Assembly (NCBI GenBank): GCA_035648555.1
Contig: DASRLF010000020.1
Coordinates: forward strand, 2,606 to 66,605
Origin: Pseudolabrys sp.
GTDB taxonomy: Bacteria > Pseudomonadota > Alphaproteobacteria > Rhizobiales > Xanthobacteraceae
Direction: 5' to 3'
DNA length: 64,000 nucleotides
Of this stretch, positions 1,943 through 24,051 are shown in pieces. Each line of letters opens with the position of its first letter. Positions within the stretch are counted from its first letter, which is position 1. Made by a program: the position numbers and the translations under genes. The notes under the pieces were generated by a model. The model was given only the letters and a program-made list of their open reading frames with translations, was not told the DNA's origin and ran no database searches.

Positions 1943-3067
1943 TTAACCGCCGCCGAATTCCTTGCGCACTTTCGCGGTATGGGCGCCGAGTGCCGGCACC
2001 GGGCCGTACGCCCGTGTCTTGCCGGCCCATTGCGGCGTCGGCGCCGGAATGCTCGCTGGCCCGCTCGGCGCATCGACGCTGATGCGCCGCAAGTGCGGAT
2101 GCTTGCTCAGCAAGGCGGAACCGTTGACGCGTGCAAAAGCGATATCGGCCGCTTCAAGTTTCTTCATCAGGGGTTCGGCGTCATGCGCGGCGAACACTTT
2201 GGCGACCGCGGCGTCGGTTTGCGCACGATGCTCGACGCGCTTGGTGACCGTGGCGAATTTCGGATCGTGCCCCAGCGAGACATCGCCCAGCACCTTGTCC
2301 GCCAATACGCGCCACTCGCGGTCGTTCTGGACGGCAATAAGGATGTCGGCGCCGTCGCGGGTCTGGTACGCGCGGTAGGGCGCGATGGTCGGATGAGCAA
2401 GGCCGACGCGCTTGAACGGATTGCCGTATTCTTCGTTCAGCAGCGGTATCGTCATCCATTCCGCCATGGCGTCGAACATGGAAATTGAAATCGCCGCGCC
2501 CTCGCCGGAGCGCCCGCGCGCGATCAACGCTTCCAGGATGGTTTCGTAGGCGCTCAAGCCGGCGGCGATATCGACGATCGAAACGCCGACGCGCGCCGGC
2601 GCTTCCGGCCCGCCGGTCACCGACGAGACGCCCGATTCCGCCTGGATCAGCAGGTCGTAGGCCTTGCGCTGCGCATAGGGACCGCTCTCGCCATAGCCGG
2701 AAATCGAGCAGCAGATCAGCCGCGGATAGTCCTTGCGCAAGCGCGCGAACGCGAAGCCGAGCTTGGCCAGCGCGCCCGGCTTAAGGTTTTGCACGAACAC
2801 ATCGGCCTTCGCCAGCATCGCTTCCAGCAGCGCCTTGTCCTCGTCGCGCACGAGGTCGAGCACCACCGATTCCTTGCCGCGATTGAGCCAGACGAAGTGC
2901 GCGCTCTCGCCGTGGACCACGTGATCGTAATGGCGGGAGAAATCGCCGTCCGGCCGCTCGACCTTGATGACGCGCGCGCCGGCGTCGGCGAGCCGGCAGG
3001 TGCACTGCGGCGCCGCCACGGCTTGCTCGACCGAGACGACCAGGAGGCCTGCGAGCGGCAGCGTCAT
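1943..3067 (-). CDS. Family III (CaiB/BaiF) CoA-transferase
   Basis: EQAVAAP, LADAGARVIKVERP, WLNRGKES, ADVFVQNLKPG, AYDLLIQAESG motifs. Confidence 0.93.
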   Translation of the reverse strand: MTLPLAGLLVVSVEQAVAAPQCTCRLADAGARVIKVERPDGDFSRHYDHVVHGESAHFVWLNRGKESVVLDLVRDEDKALLEAMLAKADVFVQNLKPGALAKLGFAFARLRKDYPRLICCSISGYGESGPYAQRKAYDLLIQAESGVSSVTGGPEAPARVGVSIVDIAAGLSAYETILEALIARGRSGEGAAISISMFDAMAEWMTIPLLNEEYGNPFKRVGLAHPTIAPYRAYQTRDGADILIAVQNDREWRVLADKVLGDVSLGHDPKFATVTKRVEHRAQTDAAVAKVFAAHDAEPLMKKLEAADIAFARVNGSALLSKHPHLRRISVDAPSGPASIPAPTPQWAGKTRAYGPVPALGAHTAKVRKEFGGG

Positions 3068-3068
3068 T

Positions 3069-4241
3069 TCAATACGAGCGCGGCAGACCGAGCACGTGCT
3101 CGGCCAGATAAGACAGGATCATGTTGGTCGAAATCGGCGCCACCTGGTAGAGCCGTGTCTCGCGGAATTTGCGCTCGACGTCGTATTCCTCGGCGAAACC
3201 GAAACCGCCGTGGGTCTGCACGCACATATCGGCGGCAAACCACGAGGCGTCGGCGGCCAGGAGCTTCGCCATATTGGCCTCCGGCCCGATGTCGGCGCCC
3301 GCTTCGTATTTGGCTGCGGCCTCGTGCACCATCAATTCGGCGGCGCGCATCTGCGCATAGGCGCGCGCGATCGGAAACTGCACGCCCTGGTTCTGCCCAA
3401 TCGGGCGGCCGAACAGCGCGCGCTCCTTGGCGTAAGCGGTCGCCTTGTTGATGAACCATTTGGCGTCGCCGATGCATTCGGCGGCGATCAAAATGCGTTC
3501 GGCGTTCATGCCGGAGAGAATGTAGCGGAAGCCCTGCCCCTCTTCGCCGATCAGATTTTCCGCCGGCACCCGCAAGTCGTCGAAGAACACCTCCGTGGTG
3601 GCGTGGTTCATCATGGTGCGGATCGGGTTGATGCTGATGCTGGTGCCTGCGGCGAGCCGCATGTCGACCAGAAAGACCGATAGACCGTCGGTGCGTTTCT
3701 TGACCTGCTCCTTCGGCGTGGTGCGCGCCAGCAGCAGCAGCAGGTCGGAATGTTCGGCGCGCGAGGTCCAGATTTTCTGGCCGTTGATGACGTAGTGGCC
3801 GTTGCCTTCCCTCCGCGCCGTAGTGCGCAAAGACAGAGTGTCGGTCCCCGACGTCGGCTCGGTGACGCCGAAGGCCTGCAAGCGCAATTCCCCACTGGCG
3901 ATTTTCGGAAGGTAGATTTGTTTTTGCTCGGGCAAACCGTGCCGCAGGATCGTGCCCATGGTGTACATCTGCGCGTGGCAGGCGGCGCCGTTGCAGCCGG
4001 AGGCCTGGATTTCCTCCAGGATCGCGCAAGCAGCGCCAATCGGCAGACCGCTGCCGCCGAATTCCTCCGGGATCAAGGCTGCGAGATAGCCGGCTTCGGT
4101 GAGCGCGCCGACGAATTCAGTCGGATAAGTTCTTTCGCGATCGAGCGCCCGCCAATATTCGCCGGGAAACTTGGCGCACAAAGCGCGCACCGACGCGCGG
4201 ATGTCGGCAAAGTCCTCATGCTGGGCGCTGCGCTTGCTCAT
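3069..4241 (-). CDS. Acyl-CoA dehydrogenase family protein
   Basis: FGVTEPTSGTD, NGQKIWTS, LFGRPIGQNQ, HGGFGFAEEYDVERKFRE motifs. Start 4241 overlaps the upstream stop (ATGA). Confidence 0.93.
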   Translation of the reverse strand: MSKRSAQHEDFADIRASVRALCAKFPGEYWRALDRERTYPTEFVGALTEAGYLAALIPEEFGGSGLPIGAACAILEEIQASGCNGAACHAQMYTMGTILRHGLPEQKQIYLPKIASGELRLQAFGVTEPTSGTDTLSLRTTARREGNGHYVINGQKIWTSRAEHSDLLLLLARTTPKEQVKKRTDGLSVFLVDMRLAAGTSISINPIRTMMNHATTEVFFDDLRVPAENLIGEEGQGFRYILSGMNAERILIAAECIGDAKWFINKATAYAKERALFGRPIGQNQGVQFPIARAYAQMRAAELMVHEAAAKYEAGADIGPEANMAKLLAADASWFAADMCVQTHGGFGFAEEYDVERKFRETRLYQVAPISTNMILSYLAEHVLGLPRSY

Positions 4242-5101
4242 GAGCCTTTTACTTCTGCCCGTCCATTGTCGATCACGACCGCGTCTCGTTCCACCGCCCA
4301 CGCGCGGAACCTTACCACGCCGGCATCGCGCCAAAACTCGGTGCGGATGGTTTCGCCCGGGAACGCCGGCGCCGAAAATCGGCCGGACATCGTGGTCAGC
4401 CGGGCCGGATCATAGCCGCAAACCGCCTTGAGCAGCGCGTGACCTGCGACCCCGAAGGTCGCCAGGCCGTGCAAAATCGGGCGCGGGAAGCCGGCGGCTT
4501 TGGCGAATTCCGGATCGGCATGCAGCGCATTGACGTCGCCGGACAGCCGGTAAATCAGCGCCATTTCCGGCCTTGTCGGCAGATCGCAGACGCCGTCCGG
4601 CGCGCGCGCCGGCAGCGCATGCGGGCGCGGCGTGTCGCGCTTCACCCCGCCGAAGCCACCATCGGCGCGGCAGAATGTAGTCTGCGTCAAGGTCGCGAGC
4701 AGGCGGCCGCTCGCTTTGTCGCTGATCGCGCGCTCGGAATAAACCAGCGCGCCTTTGCCTTCGCCTTTGTCGACAACGTCGAGGATGCGGGTGCGGCCGA
4801 TCACCGTACCTTGCGGCGCGACCGGTTCATGCAGCACCAAACCCTGCTCGCCATGCACGACGTGGGTCCAGGTGATGCCGAGATCGGGCTGGCGCAGCCA
4901 ATAGGCCGAGTAGCCTTGCACCAGCGCGTAAGTCGGTAGAATTTTCAGATTTTTTTCGTAGACGAAGGCAAGTTCATCGGCGTTGAGCGGATCCTGGCCA
5001 AGGCCCAGACCCAGCGCATAGAGCATGCAATCTTTGGGGCCGTAGCTGTGCTCGACCACCGGGATTTTCAGCGCCAGCAATTTTTCGCGATCGAGCGGCA
5101 T
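4238..5101 (-). CDS. MaoC/MFE-2-type double hot-dog (R)-enoyl-CoA hydratase
   Basis: LYALGLG, VVHGEQ, YRLSGDVNALHADP..A...GFPRPILHGL hydratase-2 motif. Confidence 0.9.
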   Translation of the reverse strand: MPLDREKLLALKIPVVEHSYGPKDCMLYALGLGLGQDPLNADELAFVYEKNLKILPTYALVQGYSAYWLRQPDLGITWTHVVHGEQGLVLHEPVAPQGTVIGRTRILDVVDKGEGKGALVYSERAISDKASGRLLATLTQTTFCRADGGFGGVKRDTPRPHALPARAPDGVCDLPTRPEMALIYRLSGDVNALHADPEFAKAAGFPRPILHGLATFGVAGHALLKAVCGYDPARLTTMSGRFSAPAFPGETIRTEFWRDAGVVRFRAWAVERDAVVIDNGRAEVKGS

Positions 5102-5108
5102 TCAAACG

Positions 5109-6212
5109 CTAACCCCAGACTTCCTTTGCGACCTCAACGATCATCTTCAGCTTGGCCCATTGCTCGTCCTCCGCCAAGACATTGCCCTCCTCGGTCGAGG
5201 CGAAGCCGCATTGCGGCGACAAACAAAGCTGATCAAGCGAGATATATTTCGCCGCCTCCTCGATGCGGCGCTTGAGATCGTCCTTGTTCTCCAGCCGGCC
5301 GGTCTTGGTGGTGACGAGCCCGAGCACGACATGGCGGTCCTTCGGCACCAGTTTAAGCGGCTCGAAGCCACCGGCACGCGCGCTGTCGTATTCCATGAAA
5401 TAGCCGTGCACCTTGATGCGGTTGAACAGGATCTCCTGCTCGGCCTCATAGCCGCCCGAGCCCATGAAGGTCGATTTATAATTGCCGCGGCACAGGTGCA
5501 TCGTAATGCGCATGTCGGCGGGAATATCCGACATAGCGGTGTTGATCAAATCGCCGTAGAGTTCGCCCAGTTTTTCCGGATCGTCGCCGCGCGCTTCCAT
5601 CTGCGCGCGGTATTTTTCATCGCACAACATGGCGATGAACACCTCGTCGAGTTGCAGATAACGGCAGCCGGCATCGGCGAAGGCGCGCACGGCTTTTTTA
5701 TACGCTTGGCCGAGATCGTCGAAGAACGCGTCGAGCTTGGGATAAATATTTCGGTCGATCGGTGTCGGCACCGGCCTGCCATAAGCCGCCGATGGCGATG
5801 GAATCGTAATCTTAGGCGTGCGCTGGGTGTGCGCGGCGACAAACTTGAAATGCTCGATCATCGGATGGCCGGAGAACCCGACTTTTCCCGCGACCTTGAG
5901 GCCTTCATTGCGCGTGGTGACTGCGGCGAAGGCGATGCCGGTGTCCATCACGTGCTTTTCGATGCCGTCGAGGCCCCAGAGAAAATCGAGGTGCCACCAG
6001 GACCGGCGGAATTCGCCGTCGGTGATCGATTGCAGACCGGCGTCTTCCTGGCGCTTGATGACGCGCTCGATCTCGCGATCTTCGACCGCCTTCAGTGCGC
6101 CGGTATCGATCTCACCTTTGGCGCGCTGCTCGCGCGCCTTTTTCAGCGCGGCTGGTCGCAGCAGGCTGCCGACATGGTCGGCGCGGAATGGCGGCTTTGT
6201 TCGCATCGTCAT
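5109..6212 (-). CDS. Cobalamin-independent methionine synthase II family protein (MetE catalytic barrel only, YxjH-like); array copy 5 of 5 in transcription order
   Basis: DHVGSLLR, TDGEFRR, Zn ligands H-L-C (MHLCRGN), E (YFMEYD) and C (SPQCGF); 367 aa, about half of full MetE. Confidence 0.9.
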   Translation of the reverse strand: MTMRTKPPFRADHVGSLLRPAALKKAREQRAKGEIDTGALKAVEDREIERVIKRQEDAGLQSITDGEFRRSWWHLDFLWGLDGIEKHVMDTGIAFAAVTTRNEGLKVAGKVGFSGHPMIEHFKFVAAHTQRTPKITIPSPSAAYGRPVPTPIDRNIYPKLDAFFDDLGQAYKKAVRAFADAGCRYLQLDEVFIAMLCDEKYRAQMEARGDDPEKLGELYGDLINTAMSDIPADMRITMHLCRGNYKSTFMGSGGYEAEQEILFNRIKVHGYFMEYDSARAGGFEPLKLVPKDRHVVLGLVTTKTGRLENKDDLKRRIEEAAKYISLDQLCLSPQCGFASTEEGNVLAEDEQWAKLKMIVEVAKEVWG

Positions 6213-7321
6213 CGGCTACCCCATACTTCTTGCGCGATTTCCACGATCATCTTGAGCTTCGCCCATTGCTCGTCCTCGGCCAGGATATTCCCTTCCTCGG
6301 TCGAGGCGAAGCCGCATTGCGGCGAAAGGCAAAGTTGGTCAAGCGGGACAAATTTCGTCGCCTGATCGATGCGGCGCTTGATGGCGTCCTTGGATTCCAG
6401 CCGGCCGCTTTTGCTGGTGACCAAACCAAGCACTACGGTCTTACCCTTGGGTACGAAACGCAGCGGCTCGAAACCGCCGGCGCGATCCGAGTCGTATTCC
6501 ATGAAATAGCCGTGCACGTTGATCGCATTGAACAGAATCTCCGCGACCGGCTCGTAGCCGCCAGAGGCCACGAAGGTAGACTGGAAATTTCCGCGGCACA
6601 GATGCATGGCGATGGCCATGTCGGCGGGAATGTCGGAGATCGCGGCGTTGATCAGCCGGGCATAGGCCGCGGGCAATTGGGCCGGATCCTCGCCGCGTTC
6701 GCTGACCTGCGCCCGCAGTTTGGGATCGCAAAGATAAGCGAGATTGACTTCATCGAATTGCAGATAGCGGCAGCCGGCATCGGCAAAACCACGCACCGCC
6801 TGAGCGTAGGTCCGGCCCAGATCAGAATAAAAGTCCTCCATGTCTGGATAAATCGCGCCCGGAATGGCGTCGCGGCCGTAGCGGAAATGCAACGACGACG
6901 GCGACGGGATCGTCATTTTCGGCGAAACGCGCGTGTGCGCCTTGACGAACTTGAAATGCTCCAGCATCGGATGACCGGAAAACGTGCCGAGCTCGCCGGT
7001 CACGCGCAGCATCATCGGCTTGGGGTTATTGCCCGCGAACTTGATCTTGCGTTCGCCGAGATAGGCTTCGACGCCATCAAGCGCGCCCAGAAAATCGTAA
7101 TTCCAGAAGGCGCGGCGAAATTCGCCGTCAGTGACGGCTTTTAGCCCAATGTCTTCTTGCTTCTTAATGACGGTGGCGATCTCGCGATCCTCGATCGCCT
7201 TGAGCTGATCGGCGGTGAGCTCGCCTTTTTCGCGCTGGGCGCGGGCTTCTTTCAGCGGCGCGGTCCGCAACAGGCTGCCGACATGATCGGCGCGGAAGGG
7301 AGGACTAAGACGTAATGTCAT
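6209..7321 (-). CDS. Cobalamin-independent methionine synthase II family protein; array copy 4 of 5
   Basis: Same motifs: MHLCRGNFQST, YFMEYD, SPQCGFASTEEGN; 370 aa. Confidence 0.9.
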   Translation of the reverse strand: MTLRLSPPFRADHVGSLLRTAPLKEARAQREKGELTADQLKAIEDREIATVIKKQEDIGLKAVTDGEFRRAFWNYDFLGALDGVEAYLGERKIKFAGNNPKPMMLRVTGELGTFSGHPMLEHFKFVKAHTRVSPKMTIPSPSSLHFRYGRDAIPGAIYPDMEDFYSDLGRTYAQAVRGFADAGCRYLQFDEVNLAYLCDPKLRAQVSERGEDPAQLPAAYARLINAAISDIPADMAIAMHLCRGNFQSTFVASGGYEPVAEILFNAINVHGYFMEYDSDRAGGFEPLRFVPKGKTVVLGLVTSKSGRLESKDAIKRRIDQATKFVPLDQLCLSPQCGFASTEEGNILAEDEQWAKLKMIVEIAQEVWGSR

Positions 7322-7330
7322 GCGCGGAGC

Positions 7331-8437
7331 TTAGCGGCCCCACACTTCTTCCGCCAACTCGACGATCATGCGCAGCTTGGCCCACTGCTCGTCCTCGGCC
7401 AGCACGTTGCCTTCCTCGGTCGAGGCGAAGCCGCACTGCGGCGAAAGGCACAGCTGCTCGAGCGCGACATATTTGGTGGCCTCCTCGATGCGGCGCTTGA
7501 TGTCGTCGCGCGGCTCCAGCCGGCCGCTTTTCGAGGTGACCAGGCCGAGGACCAGTTGCTTCTTGCCCTTGGGGAAAAAGCGCAGCGGCTCGAAGCCGCC
7601 GGCGCGGTCGCTGTCGTATTCCAGGAAATAGCCGTCGAAATTGGTGTTGCCGAGCAGATGCTCGGCGACGAATTCGTAGCCGCCCTGCGCGATCCAGGTG
7701 GAGCGGAAATTGCCGCGGCAGGAATGCATGGTGATCGCCATGTCGGCGGGCTTGCCGGCGAGCGCTTCATTGGTGACGCGCGCGTAGATCGCCGGCAGCG
7801 TGTCGGGGTCATCGCCGCGCGCCTTCGACTGCGCGCGCTCGTTCGGATCGCAGATCATTGACCAGGCGGTGTCGTCGAGCTGCAGGTAGCGGCAGCCGGC
7901 GTCGTAGAAGGCGCGGATCGCCTTGCGCCAGGCGGCGGCGACGTCGGCGAAGAAGGCGTCGTAGTCGGGATAGGCCTGCTTGCTCACCATCGCCCGGCCC
8001 TGCCGGAAATGGAACGTCGACGGCGCCGGGATCGTCATCTTCGGCGTGACGTTGCAGTGCGCCTTCAAGAACTTGAAATGCTCGATCATCGGATGGCCGG
8101 TGAAATCGACCTTGCCGGAGATCTTGATTGCCTCGGCTTTCGTCTCGACACCGTGAAATTTGATCGGCGGCGCGCTGATCATCTCGACGCCCTGCAGCCC
8201 CTTGAAGAAATCGAAGTGCCACCAGGAGCGGCGGAATTCGCCGTCGGTGGCGAGCTTCAGGCCCACCGCCGCCTGCTTCTTGATGATTTTTTCGATCTCG
8301 CGGTCTTCGACGTCTTTCAGCGCGCCGGCGTCGATCTCGCCCTTGGAAAATTTGGCGCGTGCGTCTTTCAGCGGAGCGGTGCGCAACAGGCTGCCGACCA
8401 TGTCGGCGCGGAACGGCGGCGCGGTGCGGGCGCTCAT
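7331..8437 (-). CDS. Cobalamin-independent methionine synthase II family protein; array copy 3 of 5
   Basis: Start ATG 8437 (MSARTAPPF) overlaps the upstream stop (ATGA); MHSCRGN, YFLEYD, SPQCGF. Confidence 0.9.
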   Translation of the reverse strand: MSARTAPPFRADMVGSLLRTAPLKDARAKFSKGEIDAGALKDVEDREIEKIIKKQAAVGLKLATDGEFRRSWWHFDFFKGLQGVEMISAPPIKFHGVETKAEAIKISGKVDFTGHPMIEHFKFLKAHCNVTPKMTIPAPSTFHFRQGRAMVSKQAYPDYDAFFADVAAAWRKAIRAFYDAGCRYLQLDDTAWSMICDPNERAQSKARGDDPDTLPAIYARVTNEALAGKPADMAITMHSCRGNFRSTWIAQGGYEFVAEHLLGNTNFDGYFLEYDSDRAGGFEPLRFFPKGKKQLVLGLVTSKSGRLEPRDDIKRRIEEATKYVALEQLCLSPQCGFASTEEGNVLAEDEQWAKLRMIVELAEEVWGR

Positions 8438-9540
8438 TTGCCCCACACCTCTTCTGCCAGTTCCACGATCATGCGCAGCTTGGCCCACTGCTCGTCCTCG
8501 GCCAGCACGTTGCCTTCCTCGGTCGAGGCGAAGCCGCATTGCGGCGACAAGCACAGCTGATCGAGCGCGACATATTTGCTGGCCTCGTCGATGCGGCGCT
8601 TGATGTCATCGCGCGGCTCCAACCGGCCCGACTTCGAAGTGACCAGGCCGAGCACCAGCTGCTTCTTGCCCTTGGGAAAATGACGCAGCGGCTCGAAGCC
8701 GCCGGCACGCTCGCTGTCGTATTCCAGGAAATAGCCGTCGAAATTGGTGTTGCCGAGCAGATGTTCGGCGACGAATTCATAGCCGCCCTGCGCGATCCAG
8801 GTGGAGCGGAAATTGCCGCGGCAGGAATGCATCGTAATCGCCATGTCGGCGGGCTTGCCTTCGAGCGCGGCATTGGTGACGCGTGCATAGATCGCCGGCA
8901 GCGTGTCGGGATTATCGCCGCGCGCCTTCGATTGCTCGCGCTCCTTGGGGTCGCAGATCATCGCCCAGGCGGTGTCGTCGAGCTGCAGGTAGCGGCAGCC
9001 GGCATCGTAGAAGGCGCGGATCGCCTTGCGCCAGGTGGCGCCGACATCCGCGAAGAAGGCGTCGTAGTCGGGGTAGGCCTCCTTGCTCACCATCGCCCGG
9101 CCCTGCCGGAAATGGAACGTGCTCGGCGCCGGAATGGTCATCTTGGGCGTGACGTTGCAATGCGCCTTCAGAAATTTGAAATGCTCGAGATGCGGATGGC
9201 CGGCGAAGTCGACCTTGCCGGTGATCTTGACCGCCTCGGCTTTTGTTTCGACGCCGTGGAATTTGATCGGCGGCGCACTGATCAGCTCGACGCCCTTGAG
9301 TCCCTTGAAGAAATCGAAATGCCACCAGGAACGGCGAAATTCGCCGTCGGTAGCGAGCTTCAGGCCCACCTCCGCCTGCTTCTTGACGATCTTCTCGATC
9401 TCGCGGTCTTCGACTTCGCGCAGCGCGTCGGCGGGAATTGCGCCTTTGGCAAACTTGGCGCGCGCCTCTTTCAGCGCAGCGGGGCGCAGCAGGCTGCCGA
9501 CGTGATCGGCGCGGAACGGCGCGGTCGTCCGCGCGCTCAT
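8434..9540 (-). CDS. Cobalamin-independent methionine synthase II family protein; array copy 2 of 5
   Basis: Start ATG 9540 (MSARTTAPF), ATGA overlap; about 90% identical to copy 3 by hand count. Confidence 0.9.
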   Translation of the reverse strand: MSARTTAPFRADHVGSLLRPAALKEARAKFAKGAIPADALREVEDREIEKIVKKQAEVGLKLATDGEFRRSWWHFDFFKGLKGVELISAPPIKFHGVETKAEAVKITGKVDFAGHPHLEHFKFLKAHCNVTPKMTIPAPSTFHFRQGRAMVSKEAYPDYDAFFADVGATWRKAIRAFYDAGCRYLQLDDTAWAMICDPKEREQSKARGDNPDTLPAIYARVTNAALEGKPADMAITMHSCRGNFRSTWIAQGGYEFVAEHLLGNTNFDGYFLEYDSERAGGFEPLRHFPKGKKQLVLGLVTSKSGRLEPRDDIKRRIDEASKYVALDQLCLSPQCGFASTEEGNVLAEDEQWAKLRMIVELAEEVWGK

Positions 9541-10646
9541 TTGCCCCAGACCTCTTGCGAAAGATCCACGATCATCTTCAGCTTGGCCCATTGCTCGTCC
9601 TCGGCCAGCACGTTGCCCTCTTCGGTCGAGGCAAAGCCGCATTGCGGCGAAAGACAAAGCTGATCGAGCGCGACATATTTAGTCGCCTCCTCGATGCGCT
9701 TCTTGATGTCTTCGCGCGGCTCCAGCCGGCCGGATTTCGAGGTGACGAGACCCAGCACAACGATCTTGTTGCCTTTCGGGACGAAGCGCAGCGGCTCGAA
9801 GCCGCCGGCGCGGTCGCTGTCATATTCCAGGAAGTAGCCATCGTAATTGCACTTGGCGAGCAGGCTCTCGGCCACCGGCTCGTAGCCGCCGGACGAAATA
9901 AAGGTGGAGCGGAAATTGCCCCGGCAAACATGGGTCGTGATGGTCATATCGGCGGGCTTGGCCTCCAGCGCCTTGTTGATGCAGCGGGTATAGCTATCCT
10001 GCAGATGATCGACATCGAGGCCGCGCTCGCGCGCCTTCTTCAACTCGGCCTCCGAGCAGAGATAGGCCCAGGCGGTGTCATCCCATTGCAGGTAGCGGCA
10101 GCCAGCGGCGTAGAACGCCTTAATCGCCGACTGATAGGCCATGGCGAGATCGTCGAAGATGGCGTCTCGGCTCGGATAGAACTCTTTGCTCACCGCGCCG
10201 GGTTCGAGCCGGAAATGCATCACGCTCGGCGCCGGAATGGTCATCTTCGGCATGACCTTGGTGTGCGCCTTCAGGAACCTGAAGTGCTCCAGCATCGGAT
10301 GATTGGAGAAGCCGATCTTGCCTTTGACGCGGATGCTGAGCGGCTTGGTCTGCACGCCCTGAAACTGGATGCCGTGGTCGAGCTCATAAATCTCGACGCC
10401 ATCGAGCATGCCGAAGAAATCAAAATGCCACCATGAGCGGCGGAATTCGCCGTCGGTGGCGAGCTTGAGCCCGATGTCTTCCTGTTTCTTGATGATCTTC
10501 TCGATCTCGCGATCCTCGACCTCTTTGAGCTGGGCCGGGCTAATTGCGCTCTTCTCGCGTTGCGCGCGCGCCTGCTTGACCGGCGCGGTGCGCAGGATGC
10601 TGCCGACATGGTCGGCGCGGAAAGGCGGCTTGGTTCGCTGCGTCAT
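9537..10646 (-). CDS. Cobalamin-independent methionine synthase II family protein; array copy 1 of 5
   Basis: THVCRGNFRST, YFLEYD, SPQCGF; GGAGG RBS upstream of ATG 10646. Confidence 0.9.
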   Translation of the reverse strand: MTQRTKPPFRADHVGSILRTAPVKQARAQREKSAISPAQLKEVEDREIEKIIKKQEDIGLKLATDGEFRRSWWHFDFFGMLDGVEIYELDHGIQFQGVQTKPLSIRVKGKIGFSNHPMLEHFRFLKAHTKVMPKMTIPAPSVMHFRLEPGAVSKEFYPSRDAIFDDLAMAYQSAIKAFYAAGCRYLQWDDTAWAYLCSEAELKKARERGLDVDHLQDSYTRCINKALEAKPADMTITTHVCRGNFRSTFISSGGYEPVAESLLAKCNYDGYFLEYDSDRAGGFEPLRFVPKGNKIVVLGLVTSKSGRLEPREDIKKRIEEATKYVALDQLCLSPQCGFASTEEGNVLAEDEQWAKLKMIVDLSQEVWGK

Positions 10647-10690
10647 CGTTTCCTCCGCAATTCGTCCATCGGCGTTGCCGGCCGTGGGTT

Positions 10691-11545
10691 TTATTTAATG
10701 TGAGCCATAGCACGGCCCGGCTGCGGCGTGCCATGCGCCGCTTCGCATGCGTAGCGTGCAGTTTCGATGGTGCCCCCGAATGAAAAATAATGCGGCGCGG
10801 CATCGCCCAGATCGCCAGCGGCCACAAGCGCCTCAAGGATGCGGTCCGGCCCGACATGGCCAATCAGGCCGGCGGCCGCGCCCGACATCAGGCCGCGCAG
10901 CGAAGCGGCAACGCCGCAACGCTGGGCGTAACGGAACAGCGCCGGCACGCTGGTCGGTCCAGCCATACCGACTTTCACCGGCTGATTGATGCCGCAGGTG
11001 CGCAACTGCCGGAGCCAGGCGAGGATACGCTCGGGCGAAAAGGAAAATTGGCTGACGATATGTACGCCAAGTCCTTGCGCGGTGGCGGCGGCGATCTTTT
11101 CATCAAGCGCCGCTTCAAGCCGGCCGGCCGGAATGCGCGGGTGGCCTTCCGGATAGGCGCCGATGCCGATCTCTTCAATGCCGGCTTCGCGCAATTTGCC
11201 TTTCTGAATCACCGCCAGCGCGTCTGGATAAGGCCCCGCGGCGTCGACATCGCCACCGACCACGAGAATACGGCGGATGTCCGCTTCGCCACGCAGGCTG
11301 GCCAGCAGGTTTTGCAAGTCGGCGGCCGCGCCAATTCGGCGCGCCGCGATATGAACGACCGGTTCCAAGCCGGACTTACGCAGCAAAGCCGCCGCCGCGA
11401 TCAGCTCAGGCGGCTCGATCGTCGGCACCGCCGAAAAATAGACCGGCGTTCCGCCCGGCAGCAGGTCCGCCAACGCCGCAATCTCGGCCGCGCCGGGACG
11501 CGTGGCCTCAAGCGAAAACCGCCGCGCGAAGGCGTCCGGGCTCAT
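10691..11545 (-). CDS. metF: Methylenetetrahydrofolate reductase-like flavoprotein (atypical alphaproteobacterial MetF family)
   Basis: FSLEAT, PVVHIAARR, LVVGGD, GAYPEGHP, VSQFSF, GMAGP, RCGV, YFSFGG match the MTHFR barrel motifs in order. Confidence 0.8.
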   Translation of the reverse strand: MSPDAFARRFSLEATRPGAAEIAALADLLPGGTPVYFSAVPTIEPPELIAAAALLRKSGLEPVVHIAARRIGAAADLQNLLASLRGEADIRRILVVGGDVDAAGPYPDALAVIQKGKLREAGIEEIGIGAYPEGHPRIPAGRLEAALDEKIAAATAQGLGVHIVSQFSFSPERILAWLRQLRTCGINQPVKVGMAGPTSVPALFRYAQRCGVAASLRGLMSGAAAGLIGHVGPDRILEALVAAGDLGDAAPHYFSFGGTIETARYACEAAHGTPQPGRAMAHIK

Positions 11546-11549
11546 TGCG

Positions 11550-12959
11550 CTATTCGCGCCGGTGCGAGATCACGAAAGATTCGTCGTAGAACCAAAGACC
11601 GCCCTGCTGCTGCAGCACGTCGCGCGTCGCCTCGATGTAGCGGCGGTCGCTGTTGACGTCGGACAGGCGGTCGTCCTCGATTTGCGCCACGTAGATCGCG
11701 GCGTTCCAGGCCGCCAGCAGCGTCGAGGTGCCGATCGATGAGGAAATTTCCGATGGCAGCGTGTGCATCTCGTAGCGGAACAGCGAGCGCTGGTCGGAAT
11801 AGGCGTTGAAATTGAGATCGCGGCCGGCAGGCCCCAGTTCGTGTTTCACCGCCTTGAGTAGATCGTGGCGGCTATGCGCGAAGGGATTATCCTCGGGCCA
11901 AACTTTGTGGATGATTTCCATGCCGGGGTCACGCCCGTAGGAATGGATCGCGATCATACGGCCGCCGGGCCCGAGCGCGCGAGCGAGCGGCGCCAGCACG
12001 CGCTTGGCCTTGAAGTCGATCGAGGCGCGCGCGCGATAAGGCTGCGACGCGATCACCAGATCGTAGTCGGCAACCGTGGCGCCCGGTTTCGGGATGACCT
12101 GATCGAGCAGAAACTTGTGATCGTTGCGGTAAAGCACCAGCACCACCGGCCGCTCGTAGACCGGATTGCCGCTCTTCGGCGACACGCGCGCTTTCCAGTT
12201 TTCACCAAGGAACGGCTCAAGCGCGGTGATCTGCTGCTCGAACGAATGCGCGGTGTCGCCCTCGAGCGCAACTTCCTTCCAGACCATGCTGGAGGCCGCC
12301 GTCACCGACTTGACGGACAGCCACGGCGCTTCCGCGTAAGCGAGGTTGGTAAGAACAATGACGCTCGAAGGATGCTCAATGAAACGGTCCGCCATTTTCT
12401 GCAGCGTGAGGCGGACATCTTCGAGGCTGATTTCCTTGGCCACGATGTAGAACGGCATGGTCGGGTAACGGTCGTGCATCGAGCGCATGACGCGCGCCAG
12501 CACGGTGCCGTCGCCAACGCCGGCGTCGAACACACGCACCGCCGGCGGTCGCGGGTGGATGCTGGCAAGTTCGAGACTGACGCGGTTGGCGACTTCCCAC
12601 TTCTCGCTGCAGGTATTCACGAACAGCAGATATTTCTGCCTGTTGTCGAAGAATCGGAAATTGCGTTGCGGGTCGTCGCCCGCTTGACCGGAGGCGACCG
12701 GCGGGGCCGGCGGCTTGACCATCGGCAAGACCGCGGGCGGCGCCGCATCGAACAATACGCGGCGGCGAGCCGGCGCTGCGTCGGCGTTGCGCGCCATGAA
12801 GCTACGGATGCGCTCGAGCGTGTCAGTGGTAATGCGGCCGCCATTGCGCAGGCGGTTGGCGAGCTTGCCGTCATTGACCGCGCGGCGGCCGAAAGTGGAT
12901 TCGGCCAGACCGCGCTGGCGGCAGAATTCGCCGATCTCCTGGAGGATTTGATCGTTCAT
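11550..12959 (-). CDS. Fusion of an N-terminal small HTH-like DNA-binding domain and a class I SAM-dependent methyltransferase-like domain
   Basis: Residues 1-56 (GLAESTFGRRAVNDGKLANRLRNGG) are Cro/XRE-like, followed by a Pro/Ala linker and the SAM-binding motif I VFDAGVGDG. Confidence 0.65.
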   Translation of the reverse strand: MNDQILQEIGEFCRQRGLAESTFGRRAVNDGKLANRLRNGGRITTDTLERIRSFMARNADAAPARRRVLFDAAPPAVLPMVKPPAPPVASGQAGDDPQRNFRFFDNRQKYLLFVNTCSEKWEVANRVSLELASIHPRPPAVRVFDAGVGDGTVLARVMRSMHDRYPTMPFYIVAKEISLEDVRLTLQKMADRFIEHPSSVIVLTNLAYAEAPWLSVKSVTAASSMVWKEVALEGDTAHSFEQQITALEPFLGENWKARVSPKSGNPVYERPVVLVLYRNDHKFLLDQVIPKPGATVADYDLVIASQPYRARASIDFKAKRVLAPLARALGPGGRMIAIHSYGRDPGMEIIHKVWPEDNPFAHSRHDLLKAVKHELGPAGRDLNFNAYSDQRSLFRYEMHTLPSEISSSIGTSTLLAAWNAAIYVAQIEDDRLSDVNSDRRYIEATRDVLQQQGGLWFYDESFVISHRRE

Positions 12960-13041
12960 GGGTGCGTTTCCTGGCTGGCTCTCATGGCCGGCTCAGCGCC
13001 TAGGGAACCAAGCTTACTCAAATCCGTCAATCACAAAAGAG

Positions 13042-13180
13042 GCTATATAAAAGGTGGGCAAAGTGGGTGGGCTCAGCCCAACGCTATATTTATATGAATA
13101 TATTGTTCTTTGAAAAGGTGTTTCCGGCTTTCAGTGGGCTACTACCCACTTACTGCGTAAGTGTGGGCAATAAGTGGGCC
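13042..13180. promoter_or_regulatory. AT-rich upstream region of the met-like operon with repeated GTGGG boxes and three palindromes
   Basis: GTGGG at 13054, 13063, 13067, 13134, 13163, 13174. TGGGCT-C-AGCCCA 13068-13080; AGTGGG-N6-CCCACT 13133-13150; CACTTAC-N3-GTAAGTG 13147-13163. Confidence 0.55.
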
Positions 13181-13202
13181 GCGCGGTCCGGCGATAACGT
13201 CT

Positions 13203-13817
13203 TCAGATGTCGAAGAAAACCGTTTCGTCGCCGCCCTGGACGCGAATGTCGAAGCGGTAGGTGGCGGGGCCGCTGCCGGGCTGCTTGTGGGCAATAAGGG
13301 TGCCGCGGCGGTCTGCCGGCACTAGCGTCAGGATTTGATCGGCATCGTTCGCCTTCTCGTCGGAGAAATACAGCCGCGTATAGATCTGCCGCAGCATGCC
13401 GCGCGAGAAGATGCAGACCACGATATGCGGCGCCTGCGGCTTGCCGTTCGGCCCCTGCACCGCGCCGGGCTTGACGGTGTCGAACGAATAGATGCCGTCT
13501 TTGTCGGTGGCGGAACGGCCGAAGCCGGTAAACTTCGCATTCGGGCGCGGCTTCTCACCGCGCGCATGGGCATAACGGCCTTGGGCATCGGCCTGCCAGA
13601 TTTCGATCATGGCGTCGTTGATCGGCTTGCCGTCACCGTCGAGCACGCGGCCTTCGATGTGGATCTTGGTGCCGGTGGCGTCGGGTGTGATCAGATTGTC
13701 GCCGACGGTTTCCTTCCAGCTATAGTGGCCGTTCGGATCCCATTGGCAGCGGCCATCAGGCGTCAGCCCATAGGCGAAGAACGGCCCAACCGTCTGTGAG
13801 GGCGTGATTTCGGACAT
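13203..13817 (-). CDS. pcaG: Protocatechuate 3,4-dioxygenase alpha subunit
   Basis: ITPSQTVGPFF, IEIWQADAQG, QAPHI..FSRG, YRFDIRVQG..ETVFFDI. Confidence 0.96.
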   Translation of the reverse strand: MSEITPSQTVGPFFAYGLTPDGRCQWDPNGHYSWKETVGDNLITPDATGTKIHIEGRVLDGDGKPINDAMIEIWQADAQGRYAHARGEKPRPNAKFTGFGRSATDKDGIYSFDTVKPGAVQGPNGKPQAPHIVVCIFSRGMLRQIYTRLYFSDEKANDADQILTLVPADRRGTLIAHKQPGSGPATYRFDIRVQGGDETVFFDI

Positions 13818-14524
13818 TAGTGTTTATCCGTGTCTAGCGGCGTCGCCTCGCGCCCGCGCAACACGATGTTCCAGCGGAAGCAGAGCGCCCAGTCGGGAAT
13901 GGTGTTCTCCAGATCGAAGTTGGAGACCATGCGCTGGCGCGCTTTCTCGTCGGTCACCGAATTGAAGATCGGATCGAACGGAAACAGATAATCGCCGGGG
14001 AAATACATCTGGGTGACGAGGCGCGTGAGGAACGACTGGCCGAAGACCGAGAAATGGATGTGGTTCGGCCGCCAAGCATTGTGATGATTGCCCCACGGAT
14101 AGGCGCCGGGCTTCACGGTGATGAATTTGTAGTAGCCGTTCATGTCCGTGATGGTGCGGCCCGCGCCGGTGAAATTCGGATCGAGCGGCGCCGGATGCTG
14201 ATCGACGATGTGCACGTAGCGGCCGCAGGCATTAGCTTGCCAGATTTCCACCAGCGTCTCGGGGATCGGTCGCTTGTCCTCGTCCAGCACCTGGCCGTGC
14301 ACGATGATGCGCTCGCCCAAGGGCTCGCCTTTGTGCTGCTTGGTGAGGTCGTTGTCGGTGTCCTGGATCGCGTCGTGACCGAAGGCCGGACCTGAGAGCT
14401 CGGACAGCGTGTGCGGTACAATCACCAAAGGCTTGGACGGCGAGCGCTTCACCGTGCTGCGGTATTCCGGCGACAGATGCTTGGGAAAGGCGTCGAGGCT
14501 TTCCTTGGGATAGATCAGCGACAT
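13817..14524 (-). CDS. pcaH: Protocatechuate 3,4-dioxygenase beta subunit
   Basis: EIWQANACGRYVH, KPGAYPWGNHHNAWRPNHIHFS (Fe ligands Tyr/His). Confidence 0.97.
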   Translation of the reverse strand: MSLIYPKESLDAFPKHLSPEYRSTVKRSPSKPLVIVPHTLSELSGPAFGHDAIQDTDNDLTKQHKGEPLGERIIVHGQVLDEDKRPIPETLVEIWQANACGRYVHIVDQHPAPLDPNFTGAGRTITDMNGYYKFITVKPGAYPWGNHHNAWRPNHIHFSVFGQSFLTRLVTQMYFPGDYLFPFDPIFNSVTDEKARQRMVSNFDLENTIPDWALCFRWNIVLRGREATPLDTDKH

Positions 14525-14541
14525 TATCGTCGTCCTTGCTT

Positions 14542-15752
<1,211 letters not shown>

Positions 15753-15756
<4 letters not shown>

Positions 15757-16526
15757 GCCGCCTCGCCGTGGGCGCGGTTGGTGCGCGCCTGCAATTCACG
15801 CAACACTTCGAGCTCTTTCGCGGTCGGCGCCGGCGTCTCGGCGACCTTCGAGGCAAAACGTATTTTCCAGCCAGTGTTCTCCTGGATCTGCTCGCGTGTG
15901 ACGCCGGGATGAATCGAGACGACGGTCATTTCCTTGGTTTGCGGATCGGGCTCAAGCATCGCCAGGTCGGTGATCAACTTGGTCGGGCCTTTGGTTTTGA
16001 CGCCCAGTTTGGCCCGCGAGTCGCCGCCGGTGACGTGGCCGATCGACGTCACGAAATCGAGTCTGTCGACAAAGCCGCGCTTGCCCTGCGCCATGATGAT
16101 GAAAATCTCGCCGCACGAGGTGGCGATCTCCGGCGCGCCGCCGCCGCCGGGCAGCCGCACCTTCGGCTTGTCGTAGGGACCGACCACGGTGGTGTTGAGA
16201 TTGGCGTATTTGTCGATCTGCGCGCCACCGAGGAAGCCGATCTTGATGCGGCCGCCTTGCAGCCAGTAGCGGAACATTTCCGGCACCGACACGGTGGTGA
16301 CCGCAGTCTCGCACAATTCGCCGTCGCCGATCGACAGCGGCAGGATGTTGGGCTTGGTGGCGAGCGTGCCGGATTCGTAAATCAGCGTGATACCGGGCGC
16401 ATGCGTGAGGCGCGCGAGATTGCAGGCCGCCGAGGGCTGGCCGATGCCGACAAAGCAAACGTCGTCGTTCTTCAAAGCGCGCGCCGCAGCGATCGTCATC
16501 ATCTCGTTGGGCTTGTAGTCGGCCAT
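15753..16526 (-). CDS. pcaJ: 3-oxoadipate CoA-transferase subunit B (GctB/CatJ type)
   Basis: FVGIG, LIYESG, GGAQIDKYANLN, RLPGGGGA. Confidence 0.88.
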
Positions 16527-16531
16527 GCTTC

Positions 16532-17395
16532 TTACTCCGCCGCCGAACTAAGTTTGCGCGCGTGCACGGCAAAAGCCTCGGGGCCTTTCGCCAGCACGTT
16601 TTCCTTCATCCATGAAAGGAACGAGTCGCGCTCGCGCGAGACCGCATCCCATTGCTTGTAGAAACTGTTGTTGCGCGGGTAATAGCCCTGCGCATACGAC
16701 GGGAACGCGCCGCCCGGTACCTCGACCACATGGCCGACGGTCCAGTGCGGCAGCACCACCGCATTGAGGCTGCGATCCGGCGGCAGCTCGTCGACGATCT
16801 CCTCCACCGTCACCACCGAGCGCTTCGACGCCAACACCGCTTCCTTCTGCACGCCGAGCACGCCCTCGATCATGACGTTACCGGCTTTGTCGGCGCGTTG
16901 CGCATGGATCATCGCGACGTCTGGCCGGTGCGCCGGGATCGCGGCCAGTTCCTCGCCGGTGAAAGGACAGGTCACCCGCTTGATCTTGGAATTCACTTTC
17001 GGCAGGTCGCCGCCGATATAGCCGCGGAAAATCGCGCAAGGCAGCCCGGCAGCGCCCGCTTCATAGGCGTTGGCCATGGCGGCGTGCGAATGCTCCTCTA
17101 TTTCCAATTTATGCGGCCAGCCGTTTTCTACTGCGTCGCGAAAACGATACAGCGAGCCGACGCCCGGATTGCCGCCCCATGAGAACACCAGTTTCTTGAC
17201 GCACCCCATGCCGATGAGCTGGTCGTAAACCAGGTCTGGCGTCATGCGGATCAGCGTCAGGCCCTTGCGGCCCTGGCGGATGATCTCGTGGCAGGCGGCA
17301 TGGGGAATGAGATGGGTGAAGCCCTCCAGCGCCATCGTGTCGCCGTCGCGAACGGCATCTTTAATGGCTTCGGCGAGAGACGAAATACGCGCCAT
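16532..17395 (-). CDS. pcaI: 3-oxoadipate CoA-transferase subunit A (GctA/CatI type)
   Basis: ALEGFTHLIP, RMTPDLVYDQLIG, WGGNPGVGSL. Start ATG 17395. Confidence 0.88.
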   Translation of the reverse strand: MARISSLAEAIKDAVRDGDTMALEGFTHLIPHAACHEIIRQGRKGLTLIRMTPDLVYDQLIGMGCVKKLVFSWGGNPGVGSLYRFRDAVENGWPHKLEIEEHSHAAMANAYEAGAAGLPCAIFRGYIGGDLPKVNSKIKRVTCPFTGEELAAIPAHRPDVAMIHAQRADKAGNVMIEGVLGVQKEAVLASKRSVVTVEEIVDELPPDRSLNAVVLPHWTVGHVVEVPGGAFPSYAQGYYPRNNSFYKQWDAVSRERDSFLSWMKENVLAKGPEAFAVHARKLSSAAE

Positions 17396-17467
17396 GCGAG
17401 GCTGCTTCCCGGTTGCGGCACCGTATTTACGGCTGGTCACAGGCAGGGTCAAATGGCGAAATAGGCG

Positions 17468-17487
17468 TAAGTTTGAGCTCCAACGAA
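17468..17487. promoter_or_regulatory. Putative MarR operator, degenerate copy (TAAGTTTGAGCTCCAACGAA)
   Basis: 13/20 match to the 22321 palindrome; abuts the DUF3237 start codon in the pcaI/DUF3237 divergent gap. Confidence 0.5.
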
Positions 17488-17948
17488 TGGCAGCCATGCT
17501 GGGCAAAGAACCGATCTTCACAATTCACGCCGACTTGGCGGACATCATGAATTTCGGCCGCACGCCCTATGGCGAGCGCCGCGTTATCGGCATCCTCGGC
17601 GGCAGCGTGCGCGGACCCAAGTTGCAAGGGCGTATCCTGCCGGGCGGCTTCGACTGGCAAATCATACGCAATGACGGCGCGGCGGATATCAGCGCGCGCT
17701 ACACCATCGAGACGGATGCCGGCGCGCGCATCCTGGTGTCGAGCGACGGCTTGCGGCATGGTCCGCCCGACGTGATGGCGCGGCTGGCGCGGGGCGACAG
17801 TGTCGACCCCTCGCACTATTATTTCCGCACGGTGATGCGGTTTGAGACTGCCGATCCGGCGGTGGACTGGCTCAACCGGATTCTCGGATTGACGCGCGGA
17901 CAGCGCGAGGCCAACGCCGTGCGTCTCGATGTCTATGAGGTCAAATAA
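17487..17948 (+). CDS. DUF3237 family beta-barrel protein
   Basis: TPYGERRVI.I.GG.V.GPKLQG..LPGGFDWQ, ARYTIETD, YYFRTVMRFET pattern. Confidence 0.85.
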   Translation: MAAMLGKEPIFTIHADLADIMNFGRTPYGERRVIGILGGSVRGPKLQGRILPGGFDWQIIRNDGAADISARYTIETDAGARILVSSDGLRHGPPDVMARLARGDSVDPSHYYFRTVMRFETADPAVDWLNRILGLTRGQREANAVRLDVYEVK

Positions 17949-20586: not shown

Positions 20587-20598
20587 GGACACGAGATC

Positions 20599-21776: not shown

Positions 21777-21781
21777 CGGCC

Positions 21782-22312: not shown

Positions 22313-22320
22313 GCCGGTAC

Positions 22321-22340
22321 ATAGTTTGATATCAAACTAT
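22321..22340. promoter_or_regulatory. Putative MarR operator, perfect 20-bp palindrome ATAGTTTGATATCAAACTAT
   Basis: Exact self-reverse-complement between divergent marR and dctP. Confidence 0.75.
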
Positions 22341-22422
22341 AACCTTTACAACGTCCACGACATGCGGCTGAATAATAAAAAAGTTGGCAAGCAAACCAAC
22401 ACCCAACCGAGGGAGGAAGTCC

Positions 22423-23448: not shown

Positions 23449-23473
23449 ACCGGCGCGCCAACGATATTGGACT

Positions 23474-24041: not shown

Positions 24042-24051
24042 AAGAGACGCG

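Follow-up and report, generated by a model that had tools for sequence, protein, structure and literature searches.

Several described systems share features with a run of ten genes found on the minus strand, at positions 1943-12959, of a 64,000-nucleotide (nt) stretch of a Pseudolabrys genome (contig DASRLF010000020.1), referred to below as the window. In sahR-metF-metH operons the regulator, SahR or SamR, joins a DNA-binding head, an N-terminal winged helix of the ArsR type, to an S-adenosylmethionine (SAM) methyltransferase fold, and its hold on DNA is relieved by S-adenosylhomocysteine or by SAM. The autoregulated gene leads its operon, ahead of metF and a gene for methionine synthase or of metK and ahcY, and the SahR operator is a 20-bp palindrome of the ATC-N10-GAT type (PMC4239095). 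The ligM-metF-ligH system of Sphingobium lignivorans SYK-6 (PMC11868366; Protein Data Bank (PDB) entry 7XG9) contains a different kind of MetF. Such type-4 methylenetetrahydrofolate reductases (MTHFRs) are defined by three motifs, in loop b2-a3 (L48, P49), helix a8 (F215, C219) and loop b8-a11 (P268, F269), and have been reported as partners of tetrahydrofolate (THF)-dependent demethylases (LigM, DesA, CmuAB, Dmt); S6MTHFR oxidises methyl-THF without using NADH, and its Cys219 and Phe269 are required (Yu et al. 2025, PMC11868366). Among short relatives of MetE, the Firmicutes proteins YxjG and YxjH (PRK06233/PRK06520; PDB 1YPX) are controlled by T-box or S-box RNA; in Lactobacillus a methionine-specific T-box governs yxjH, which is induced when the medium is deficient in methionine (PMC6004538). 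The core methionine synthases MesA-MesD, single MetE barrels without a folate domain, use non-folate donors (PMC7857596). Finally, the beta-oxidative hydroxycinnamate pathway of Agrobacterium fabrum, Atu1414-1421, activates phenylpropanoids with CoA before hydrating, dehydrogenating and thiolytically cleaving them, and its genes cluster with those for an O-demethylase, a MetF (Atu1418) and a regulator responsive to a folate species (PMC7797058).

The overall logic of the Pseudolabrys locus resembles both sahR-metF-metH and ligM-metF-ligH. Gene 1, encoding 469 amino acids (aa), is labelled X469; the type-4 MTHFR gene, MetF4; and the five short MetE-like genes, E1-E5. The ten genes are best explained as one operon headed by X469. 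The best joint reading, in which our confidence falls a little short of even, is that X469 switches an operon whose E enzymes would methylate homocysteine from methoxylated aromatics, with MetF4 and the CoA enzymes in support. The first-pass annotation had proposed an undescribed system. No description was found in the searchable literature of the X469 regulator family and its operator, of the general pairing of X469 with a type-4 MTHFR, or of a multi-type core-MetE array joined to X469 and MetF4 in an aromatic-catabolic island; the component enzymes, by contrast, belong to named families (type-4 MTHFRs, YxjG/YxjH-type core MetE and standard CoA enzymes). The features of the operon, in order of transcription, are as follows.

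13005-13178, minus strand: predicted promoter/operator region (half-sites, TTGACG box, TTGGTTC box)
11550-12959, minus strand: X469, 469 aa, probable autoregulated transcription factor (fold, operator, MetF neighbour)
10691-11545, minus strand: MetF4, type-4 (S6MTHFR-type) MTHFR homologue, 284 aa (PDB 7XG9, E 1e-53; signature residues)
9537-10646, minus strand: E1, core-MetE (YxjG/YxjH, PRK06520) zinc methyltransferase (NF005085, 595.7 bits; 1YPX, E 6.5e-130)
8434-9540, minus strand: E2, core-MetE paralogue, 90% identical to E3 (NF005085, 586.2 bits)
7331-8437, minus strand: E3, core-MetE paralogue, recent duplicate of E2 (NF005085, 585.4 bits)
6209-7321, minus strand: E4, core-MetE paralogue, distinct conserved type (NF005085, 531.4 bits)
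5109-6212, minus strand: E5, core-MetE paralogue, distinct conserved type, 60-65% identical to the others (NF005085, 511.4 bits)
4238-5101, minus strand: MaoC/MFE-2-type (R)-specific enoyl-CoA hydratase (PF01575, E 5e-23; PF22622, E 4e-20)
3069-4241, minus strand: acyl-CoA dehydrogenase (ACAD), with all three ACAD domains
1943-3067, minus strand: family III CoA-transferase (PF02515, E 6e-100)

Operon layout and the probable regulator X469

The run consists of ten open reading frames (ORFs) in the same direction, each opening with ATG, with gaps of 4, 44, -4, -4, 9, -4, 7, -4 and 1 nt between consecutive genes; these measured sizes bear out the four ATGA overlaps (9540/9537, 8437/8434, 6212/6209 and 4241/4238). 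Scanned against the consensus, the run shows no internal sigma-70-like promoter, where 2.5 would be expected, and every terminator-like match within it is intragenic. Gene 1 is parted from the preceding gene on the same strand by 243 nt (12960-13202). The order pcaIJFHG, X469, MetF4, one to five E genes, a gene for a MaoC hydratase and/or a short-chain dehydrogenase/reductase (SDR), ACAD and CoA-transferase recurs in all 16 congeners fetched, and E genes adjoin X469 in 31 of 33 Pseudolabrys-like loci. This recurrence shows that the arrangement did not arise by chance. The packing described by the first-pass annotation (ten co-oriented minus-strand genes, gaps of at most 44 nt, four ATGA couplings) therefore stands in full, and the conserved co-occurrence for which it had proposed a neighbourhood survey is observed. 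The long plus-strand ORFs of the window at 5160-6365, 6095-7144, 8359-9663, 9438-10436, 10790-11656 and 11865-13097 (288-434 aa) overlie the real minus-strand genes and are antisense shadow ORFs, typical for high-GC DNA.

The model of X469 (AlphaFold2 with an alignment of 21 homologues, predicted local distance difference test score 84.9, compared with 39 for a single-sequence run) comprises a four-helix N-terminal head (residues 1-60) connected through a disordered Pro/Ala linker (63-104) to a Rossmann-type body with the class-I SAM-methyltransferase fold. The solved folds nearest to the body, as ranked by Foldseek at probability 1.0, are histamine N-methyltransferase and the thiol methyltransferases TmtA and GtmA, and a GxGxG motif lies within this complete small-molecule methyltransferase fold. 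No Pfam or NCBIfam model matches the whole protein, and neither half has a match in Pfam even at E 10; Methyltransf_11, 25 and 31 give no sequence match to the body, so that its assignment as a methyltransferase is one of fold only. The ArsR-type helix-turn-helix (HTH) models HTH_5 and HTH_20 are likewise unmatched, up to E 10, by X469 and by its first 66 residues. The sole match of the head is to phrog_7669, a phage family without assigned function (E 2e-6). X469 differs from SahR/SamR in the type of its head and in the lack of a Methyltransf sequence match, and shares with them the fold of its body. The earlier description of gene 1 as a regulator-like protein with a non-ArsR head and a SAM-methyltransferase fold agrees with the model and with the conserved operator described below.

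A set of conserved sites is found in front of X469. Seven CCCAC/GTGGG half-sites lie at 13054-13178, among them the palindrome GTGGGTAGTAGCCCAC (13134-13149), followed by a TTGACG -35-like box at 13025-13030 and a conserved TTGGTTC box at 13005-13011. The arrangement TGGGCA-n4-TGCCCA, then GCCCAC-n7-GTGGGC, then TTTGTGGTTGAC stands upstream of 71 of 79 X469-homologous genes from alpha-, beta- and gamma-proteobacteria. Upstream of X469 genes the half-sites average 4.15-4.19 per 230 nt, compared with 0.73 in random windows from the same loci, of which 2% reach four. This operator, built of TGGGC/GCCCA(C/T) boxes, differs from that of SahR. In a genome-wide search of the assembly under study (2.99 Mb, only 92% complete), the operon's own promoter alone stood out as a multi-site cluster, and no further operator clusters were found. 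The TTGGTTC(G/C)CT box lies 17-19 nt 3' of the TTGAC box, at the same position in about 70 homologous promoters; it is unlike the sigma-70 -10 hexamer and may serve as a non-standard -10 element or as an additional site of protein binding.

The X469 family is large: clustering at 50% leaves 2122 representatives, species genomes contain more than 562 loci, and the public metagenome matches listed include more than 8000 close homologues. Within the 80 closest loci, a MetF4 gene follows on the same strand within 400 nt in 30 of 31 Pseudolabrys-like cases, and lies downstream in 34 of 44 others (Xanthobacteraceae, Beijerinckia, Stellaceae, Rhodospirillales, Burkholderiales and Gammaproteobacteria). 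On these neighbourhoods, the widespread part is the regulator and MetF pair only, the MetE array and CoA module being a Pseudolabrys-specific addition. X469 is followed by metK at one locus (L115) and by metK, ahcY and MetF4 at another (L118), and an 8-Mb genome of the same family (L031) carries an ABC (ATP-binding cassette) importer, E, X469, metK and ahcY in that order. Head-less homologues have neither the operator boxes nor a MetF neighbour. One of these, P0129 on marine TARA contigs (L125/L126, 3238-8188), adjoins an MttB-family methyltransferase and a DAO-type oxidase, which is another demethylation-type neighbourhood for a free-standing methyltransferase-fold protein. A head is present in the distant homologue P0136 (39% identity), whose glycine loop is degenerate and whose gene is translationally coupled within a catabolic operon (L130, 1282-6443) that adjoins a VanA-type Rieske oxygenase and an AraC regulator.

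A canonical sahR-metF-metH operon, with a regulator matching HTH_5 (E 1.9e-15) and Methyltransf_11, is present elsewhere in this genome (contig C31; locus L121, 2695-8367). The organism therefore has two parallel modules of an HTH-methyltransferase regulator and a MetF, and the parallel in gene order drawn by the first-pass annotation can be seen within a single genome. The conserved upstream operator and the position directly before a MetF gene make X469 most likely an autoregulated transcription factor that is an analogue of SahR, standing outside the SahR family; its partner, unlike that of SahR, is predicted to be an oxidising type-4 MetF.

MetF4 and the core-MetE array

MetF4 matches 7XG9 at E 1e-53, compared with 4e-7 for the Thermus enzyme and 2e-3 for E. 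coli MetF, and has a weak score of 32 bits with Pfam PF02219. At the type-4 positions L48, P49, F215, C219, P268 and F269 it has Val, Pro, Tyr, Cys, Ser and Phe, two of the six being conservative or changed (F215Y, P268S), where Gly, Gly, Phe, Ala, Thr and Met stand in the canonical MetF from the same genome. Across 65 X469-linked MetFs, Cys219 is invariant, Phe269 and Pro49 are each present in 63, and position 48 is bulky in 64, the single exception being Ala. MetF4 is accordingly expected, on homology and signature residues, to be a type-4 MTHFR that would oxidise 5-methyl-THF to 5,10-methylene-THF, and it probably does not feed the synthases with methyl-THF. The likeness to the SYK-6 system extends to the setting, MetF4 being found beside aromatic catabolic genes and, in some congeners, beside a true LigM. 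The differences are that LigM, DesA, CmuAB and Dmt are absent from the locus, which has MetE-fold enzymes instead; that Pro268 and Phe215 are replaced; and that the operon lacks a ligH/purU-type gene.

A third MTHFR-like gene (116 bits) is present in this genome (contig C6, 20242-21111; L122, 6206-7357). Its homologues adjoin a MetH-like protein with a B12-binding domain in two congeners (G005:C1:1690545-1692137 and G003:C36), in the second of which a MetH-like pterin-binding segment also lies alongside. This setting suggests a corrinoid-dependent methyltransferase system elsewhere in the genus.

The five E proteins (367-370 aa) score 511-596 bits against NF005085 (PRK06520), for which the cut-off is 313 bits, and E1 is approximately 58% identical to the Listeria YxjG/H-type structure 1YPX, as read off the alignment. 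The E2-E3 pair is 90% identical and all other pairs 60-68%, and orthologues of the four types (E1, E2/3, E4 and E5) are kept throughout the genus at about 80-90% identity. The zinc ligands H239, C241, E274 and C336 (E1 numbering) are the same in all 105 aligned sequences, and S16, E67 and D189, which align with the residues of MetE that hold homocysteine, are kept in 104-105 of them. We take the Ser of the IGS motif, the Glu of GE and the Asp of IDE to be the residues holding the amino-acid part of homocysteine in MetE structures; the IGS/GE/DE/HxC/E/C equivalences are also present where E4 is aligned to Candida Met6p. Since both the thiol-activating zinc site and the homocysteine residues are kept, methyl transfer onto a thiol is the likeliest chemistry, with homocysteine as the probable acceptor. 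Columns that are uniform within types and differ between them (147, 192-193, 205, 216 and 246-257) lie for the most part beside the homocysteine-binding Asp (189) and the zinc-ligand motif HxC (239-241). E1-E4 have Phe or Tyr at the position of the MetE Trp that stacks on folate.

Unlike full-length MetE, the E proteins lack the N-terminal Meth_synt_1 barrel; they match Meth_synt_2 only, and not the GcvT fold of LigM and DesA. The folate-binding N-domain of MetE (PF08267) was found in none of 41 Pseudolabrys genomes, and MetH is present in all nine that were tested. The absence of the N-domain makes the E enzymes the sole candidates in the genus for cobalamin-independent homocysteine methylation. 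They share family, length and both sets of active-site residues with YxjG and YxjH. They differ from these in forming a tandem array of four types, in having a protein regulator rather than a T-box or S-box RNA, and in lying within an aromatic-catabolic island, linked to MetF4 and CoA enzymes. Their relationship to MesA-MesD is only distant, and the ten operon products include neither a corrinoid protein nor a MesX (DUF1852) domain. The first-pass annotation had seen an atypical MetF and half-size MetE barrels with thiol methyl transfer as their role. The MetF does differ from the canonical enzyme and the proposed chemistry is still the likeliest; the proteins themselves, however, fall into families already described (type-4 MTHFR; YxjG/YxjH, PRK06520). 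For the transfer of alkyl groups, which that annotation had also envisaged, the analysis gave neither support nor contrary evidence.

Across the order, PRK06520 proteins occur in 28 of 101 genera, mostly in single copy. Neither the window nor the surroundings of single-copy E genes at seven other loci yielded a riboswitch, those for B12 and SAM included; a tRNA gene at 58261-58334 is the sole Rfam match in the window at the gathering threshold. Beyond the operon, this genome has at least five more single-barrel MetE-like genes, all divergent, on contigs C5 (40241-41410), C11 (5568-6773), C17 (7631-8665), C42 (25780-26811) and C59 (15518-16669); the superfamily as a whole is expanded in this organism. 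Those on C5 and C42 directly follow ABC-importer genes, the former being followed by a creatinase/prolidase-like gene; those on C17 and C59 lie near binding-protein genes of ABC or tripartite tricarboxylate transporter (TTT) type, and that on C11 has no transporter neighbour.

CoA enzymes and aromatic-catabolic surroundings

The last three genes of the operon form a CoA module. Comparisons of the CoA-transferase, ACAD and hydratase with NCBIfam and the PDB were generic and pointed to no specific substrate: the nearest structures to the CoA-transferase are YfdE, formyl-CoA transferase and succinate--hydroxymethylglutarate CoA-transferase, and the ACAD reached no specific NCBIfam equivalog and had only generic PDB matches. 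No support was found for reading the module as DmdBCD-like, acting on methylmercaptopropionate (MMPA), or as CaiABD-like, acting on betaines. In congeners a 304-aa SDR is encoded in place of the MaoC hydratase or in addition to it. Compared with the A. fabrum pathway, to which the locus bears a likeness, activation would be by a family III CoA-transferase, the hydratase is of the MaoC type, and an acyl-CoA dehydrogenase is added, which suits saturated side chains; moreover, Atu1420 is LigM-type and the A. fabrum regulator is of the GntR/FCD class.

Directly upstream of the operon, and syntenic throughout the genus, is a second set of genes.

13203-17521, minus strand: pcaG, pcaH, pcaF (thiolase), pcaJ and pcaI, for protocatechuate 3,4-cleavage and the beta-ketoadipate pathway (Dioxygenase_C/PCDO_beta_N, Thiolase, CoA_trans)

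Beyond these, the region 17244-29096 encodes a DUF3237 protein, an enoyl-CoA hydratase, an AMP-forming CoA ligase, an SDR, a tripartite ATP-independent periplasmic (TRAP) transporter, DctPQM, and an IorAB-like 2-oxoacid:ferredoxin oxidoreductase, which together form an upper pathway of the hydroxycinnamate (fcs/ech) type. The same set of genes is found around the single E gene of another genus (L032).

In some congeners MetF4 and the E genes have a GcvT-family gene between them, on the other strand. This is an orthologue of LigM (E 9e-212 to 5X1I/5TL4), which is present in 11 of 41 Pseudolabrys genomes, mostly at this site. In the cultured strain Pseudolabrys sp. Root1462 (L065) the order is X469, MetF4, LigM, GntR, E1, MaoC, ACAD and CoA-transferase. 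Two congener plus-strand ORFs without Pfam match (U419 and U478, of 419 and 478 aa) were rejected as genes, being antisense shadows of LigM. The assembly of the present genome yielded no LigM-like gene and no VanA_C match, and seven high-quality congeners have neither LigM nor VanA. In a genome that is 100% complete and has neither LigM nor VanA (G129), the E gene lies between IorAB and a cluster encoding a MarR regulator, thioesterase, thiolase, CoA ligase and hydratase, which is homologous to one in the window. Some congeners have E genes interleaved with Peripla_BP_6 binding-protein genes and a GntR gene. In two genomes of different families, G077 and G162, the E gene is the last of an ABC-importer operon, 24 and 34 nt after the importer. 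The binding protein of G077 matches PDB 4EY3, 4EYG and 4EYK at E 8e-214 and that of G162 is 64-66% identical to it; G162 also has a VanA_C gene 2 kb upstream, and G077 has no MetF4-type gene anywhere in its genome. Lastly, the neighbours of X469-MetF4 in G094 and G139 are one PRK06520 gene, as many as five divergent MetE-like genes and a TRAP transporter.

Together, pcaIJFHG, the hydroxycinnamate genes and the LigM of congeners point to lignin-derived methoxy-aromatics, a context of which the first-pass annotation had made no use. Two possible precedents for MetE-like O-demethylases were set aside: the DmtS of Novosphingobium, which its paper shows to be VanA-like, and Atu1420 of A. fabrum. 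Literature searches for MetE-like O-demethylases and for aromatic catabolism in Pseudolabrys found nothing relevant.

Possible functions and their meaning

Under the joint reading, X469, with its phage-like helical head and SAM-methyltransferase-fold sensor, would bind the GCCCAC-box operator before its own gene and respond to a metabolite of the methyl cycle (SAM, S-adenosylhomocysteine (SAH) or methyl-folate), as the unrelated SahR does. The E enzymes, in four conserved specificity types, would convert homocysteine to methionine using imported non-folate methyl donors, the likeliest of these being aromatic acids with methoxyl groups, derived from lignin or from plant phenylpropanoids. With the SDR of congeners and the neighbouring thiolase, the CoA-transferase, ACAD and hydratase may shorten a saturated propanoid side chain, and the demethylated rings would reach protocatechuate and then the pca pathway directly upstream. 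MetF4 would return 5-methyl-THF to 5,10-methylene-THF, averting a methyl-THF trap while methionine is made without folate; where LigM occurs, it would also oxidise the methyl-THF that LigM makes.

A number of observations weigh against this account. Bulk O-demethylation onto homocysteine would flood the cell with methionine, so that salvage of methyl groups fits better than catabolism, and yet the operon otherwise looks catabolic. The reported partnership of type-4 MTHFRs with THF-dependent demethylases favours THF, not homocysteine, as the acceptor. None of 47 close X469 loci outside Pseudolabrys has an E gene, implying that the link between X469 and the E genes may be a genus-specific juxtaposition. 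The lack of LigM and VanA carries little weight in this genome, whose assembly has a completeness of only 92%, and the search for demethylases did not extend to the P450 type. The binding proteins interleaved with E genes in congeners have a weak likeness to HAAT/LIV amino-acid binders and are unlike binders of aromatic acids. The aromatic ligands of the G077-type importer depend on 4EY3, 4EYG and 4EYK, which we take to be a Rhodopseudomonas palustris protein crystallised with 4-hydroxybenzoate, vanillate and protocatechuate; the source is said to be Michalska et al. 2012. Finally, literature searches on the biochemistry of YxjG and YxjH, including their methyl donor, gave nothing relevant.

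In a stronger form of the proposal, the E enzymes would be aryl methyl ether O-demethylases of a new, cofactor-free class, using the zinc site with homocysteine, or less probably THF, as acceptor. This single claim, which extends to the E genes at the end of ABC-importer operons for aromatic acids in other Rhizobiales, seems to us doubtful, if a real possibility. Methionine would then be made straight from lignin methoxy groups without folate or cobalamin, and X469 and the type-4 MTHFR would act as a homeostatic valve for the methyl-folate pool.

The remaining explanations assign the E enzymes a folate partner or give X469 a catalytic role. The first is plain cobalamin-independent methionine synthesis, in which the E enzymes would use 5-methyl-THF as MetE does under a SAM- or SAH-responsive X469. 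The methyl-THF would come from MetF4 run reductively with a donor other than NADH, from the canonical MetF or, where it is present, from LigM; the paralogues would be dosage copies or minor variants and the CoA genes unrelated passengers. The order of regulator, metF and synthase mirrors the sahR-metF-metH operon of the same genome, a B12-independent synthase would be useful because the genus has MetH and no full-length MetE, the homocysteine and zinc sites are intact, E1-E4 retain an aromatic residue at the folate-stacking position, and methyl-THF is the metabolite common to LigM, MetF4 and E1. Nevertheless, we consider this explanation unlikely. Mere dosage copies sit poorly with four types that are distinct throughout the genus (60-68% identity) and carry type-specific residues by the active site, and a folate donor sits poorly with binding-protein genes among the E genes and with importer operons of other families whose last gene is an E gene. 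MetF4 carries the signature of an NADH-blind oxidising enzyme, and no B12 or SAM riboswitch was found. YxjH occurs alongside full-length MetE in Lactobacillus, and B. subtilis also has both. Furthermore, the E proteins have no folate-binding N-domain, and the characterised core synthases do not use methyl-folate (PMC7857596).

A second explanation, which we judge improbable, makes the E enzymes THF-dependent demethylases, analogues of LigM and DesA on a MetE barrel, that would pass the methyl group of aryl methyl ethers or other donors to THF for MetF4 to oxidise the methyl-THF. This would accord with the reported pairing of type-4 MTHFRs with such demethylases (PMC11868366), with the LigM found at the same locus in 11 of 41 genomes, and with the independent X469-MetF4-multi-MetE cluster of another family (G094: one PRK06520 gene, five divergent barrels and a TRAP transporter). 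Its stoichiometry suits bulk catabolism, and G129 and the seven high-quality congeners lack both LigM and VanA. On the other hand, the invariant Cys2-His zinc site and the three homocysteine residues would be needless for a folate acceptor, the E enzymes are close to the methionine-regulated YxjG/H enzymes, G077 has the ABC-E operon yet no MetF4-type gene, and methylation of THF is known for no enzyme of the MetE fold.

That X469 is also, or instead, an enzyme closing a carrier cycle (E-made methionine, MetK, transfer by X469 to an acceptor such as THF, AhcY, MetF4) is very unlikely. It would solve the methionine overflow and is consistent with the complete fold with GxGxG, with the free-standing head-less homologues and with the L118, L115 and L031 clusters, which would encode every step but the transferase. 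Against it, each methyl group would cost several ATP, a SAM:THF methyltransferase is not known, DNA binding is favoured by the conserved operator and the helical head, MetF4 is absent in G077, the glycine loop is degenerate in distant head-bearing homologues, and the example of SahR demonstrates that a fold of this kind may act purely as a sensor (PMC4239095).

In public soil metagenomes, proteins encoded by this Pseudolabrys locus are encountered very often. Were B12-independent methionine synthesis the true function, it would explain how a genus with MetH and without MetE copes in the absence of cobalamin. Returning to the joint reading of methyl transfer from methoxylated aromatics to homocysteine, the four-type array, the aromatic-acid importers and the LigM and pca surroundings offer concrete donor candidates for the YxjG/YxjH synthases. 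Type-4 MTHFRs were previously described only as partners of LigM-, Dmt- and CmuAB-type enzymes; here they form a widespread two-gene module with an undescribed regulator family across three proteobacterial classes, which suggests a valve of general use that keeps methyl-folate from being trapped. In lignin valorisation O-demethylation is recognised as a bottleneck, and if the E enzymes do demethylate methoxy-aromatics, they would represent a new class of O-demethylases independent of oxygen, folate and B12.

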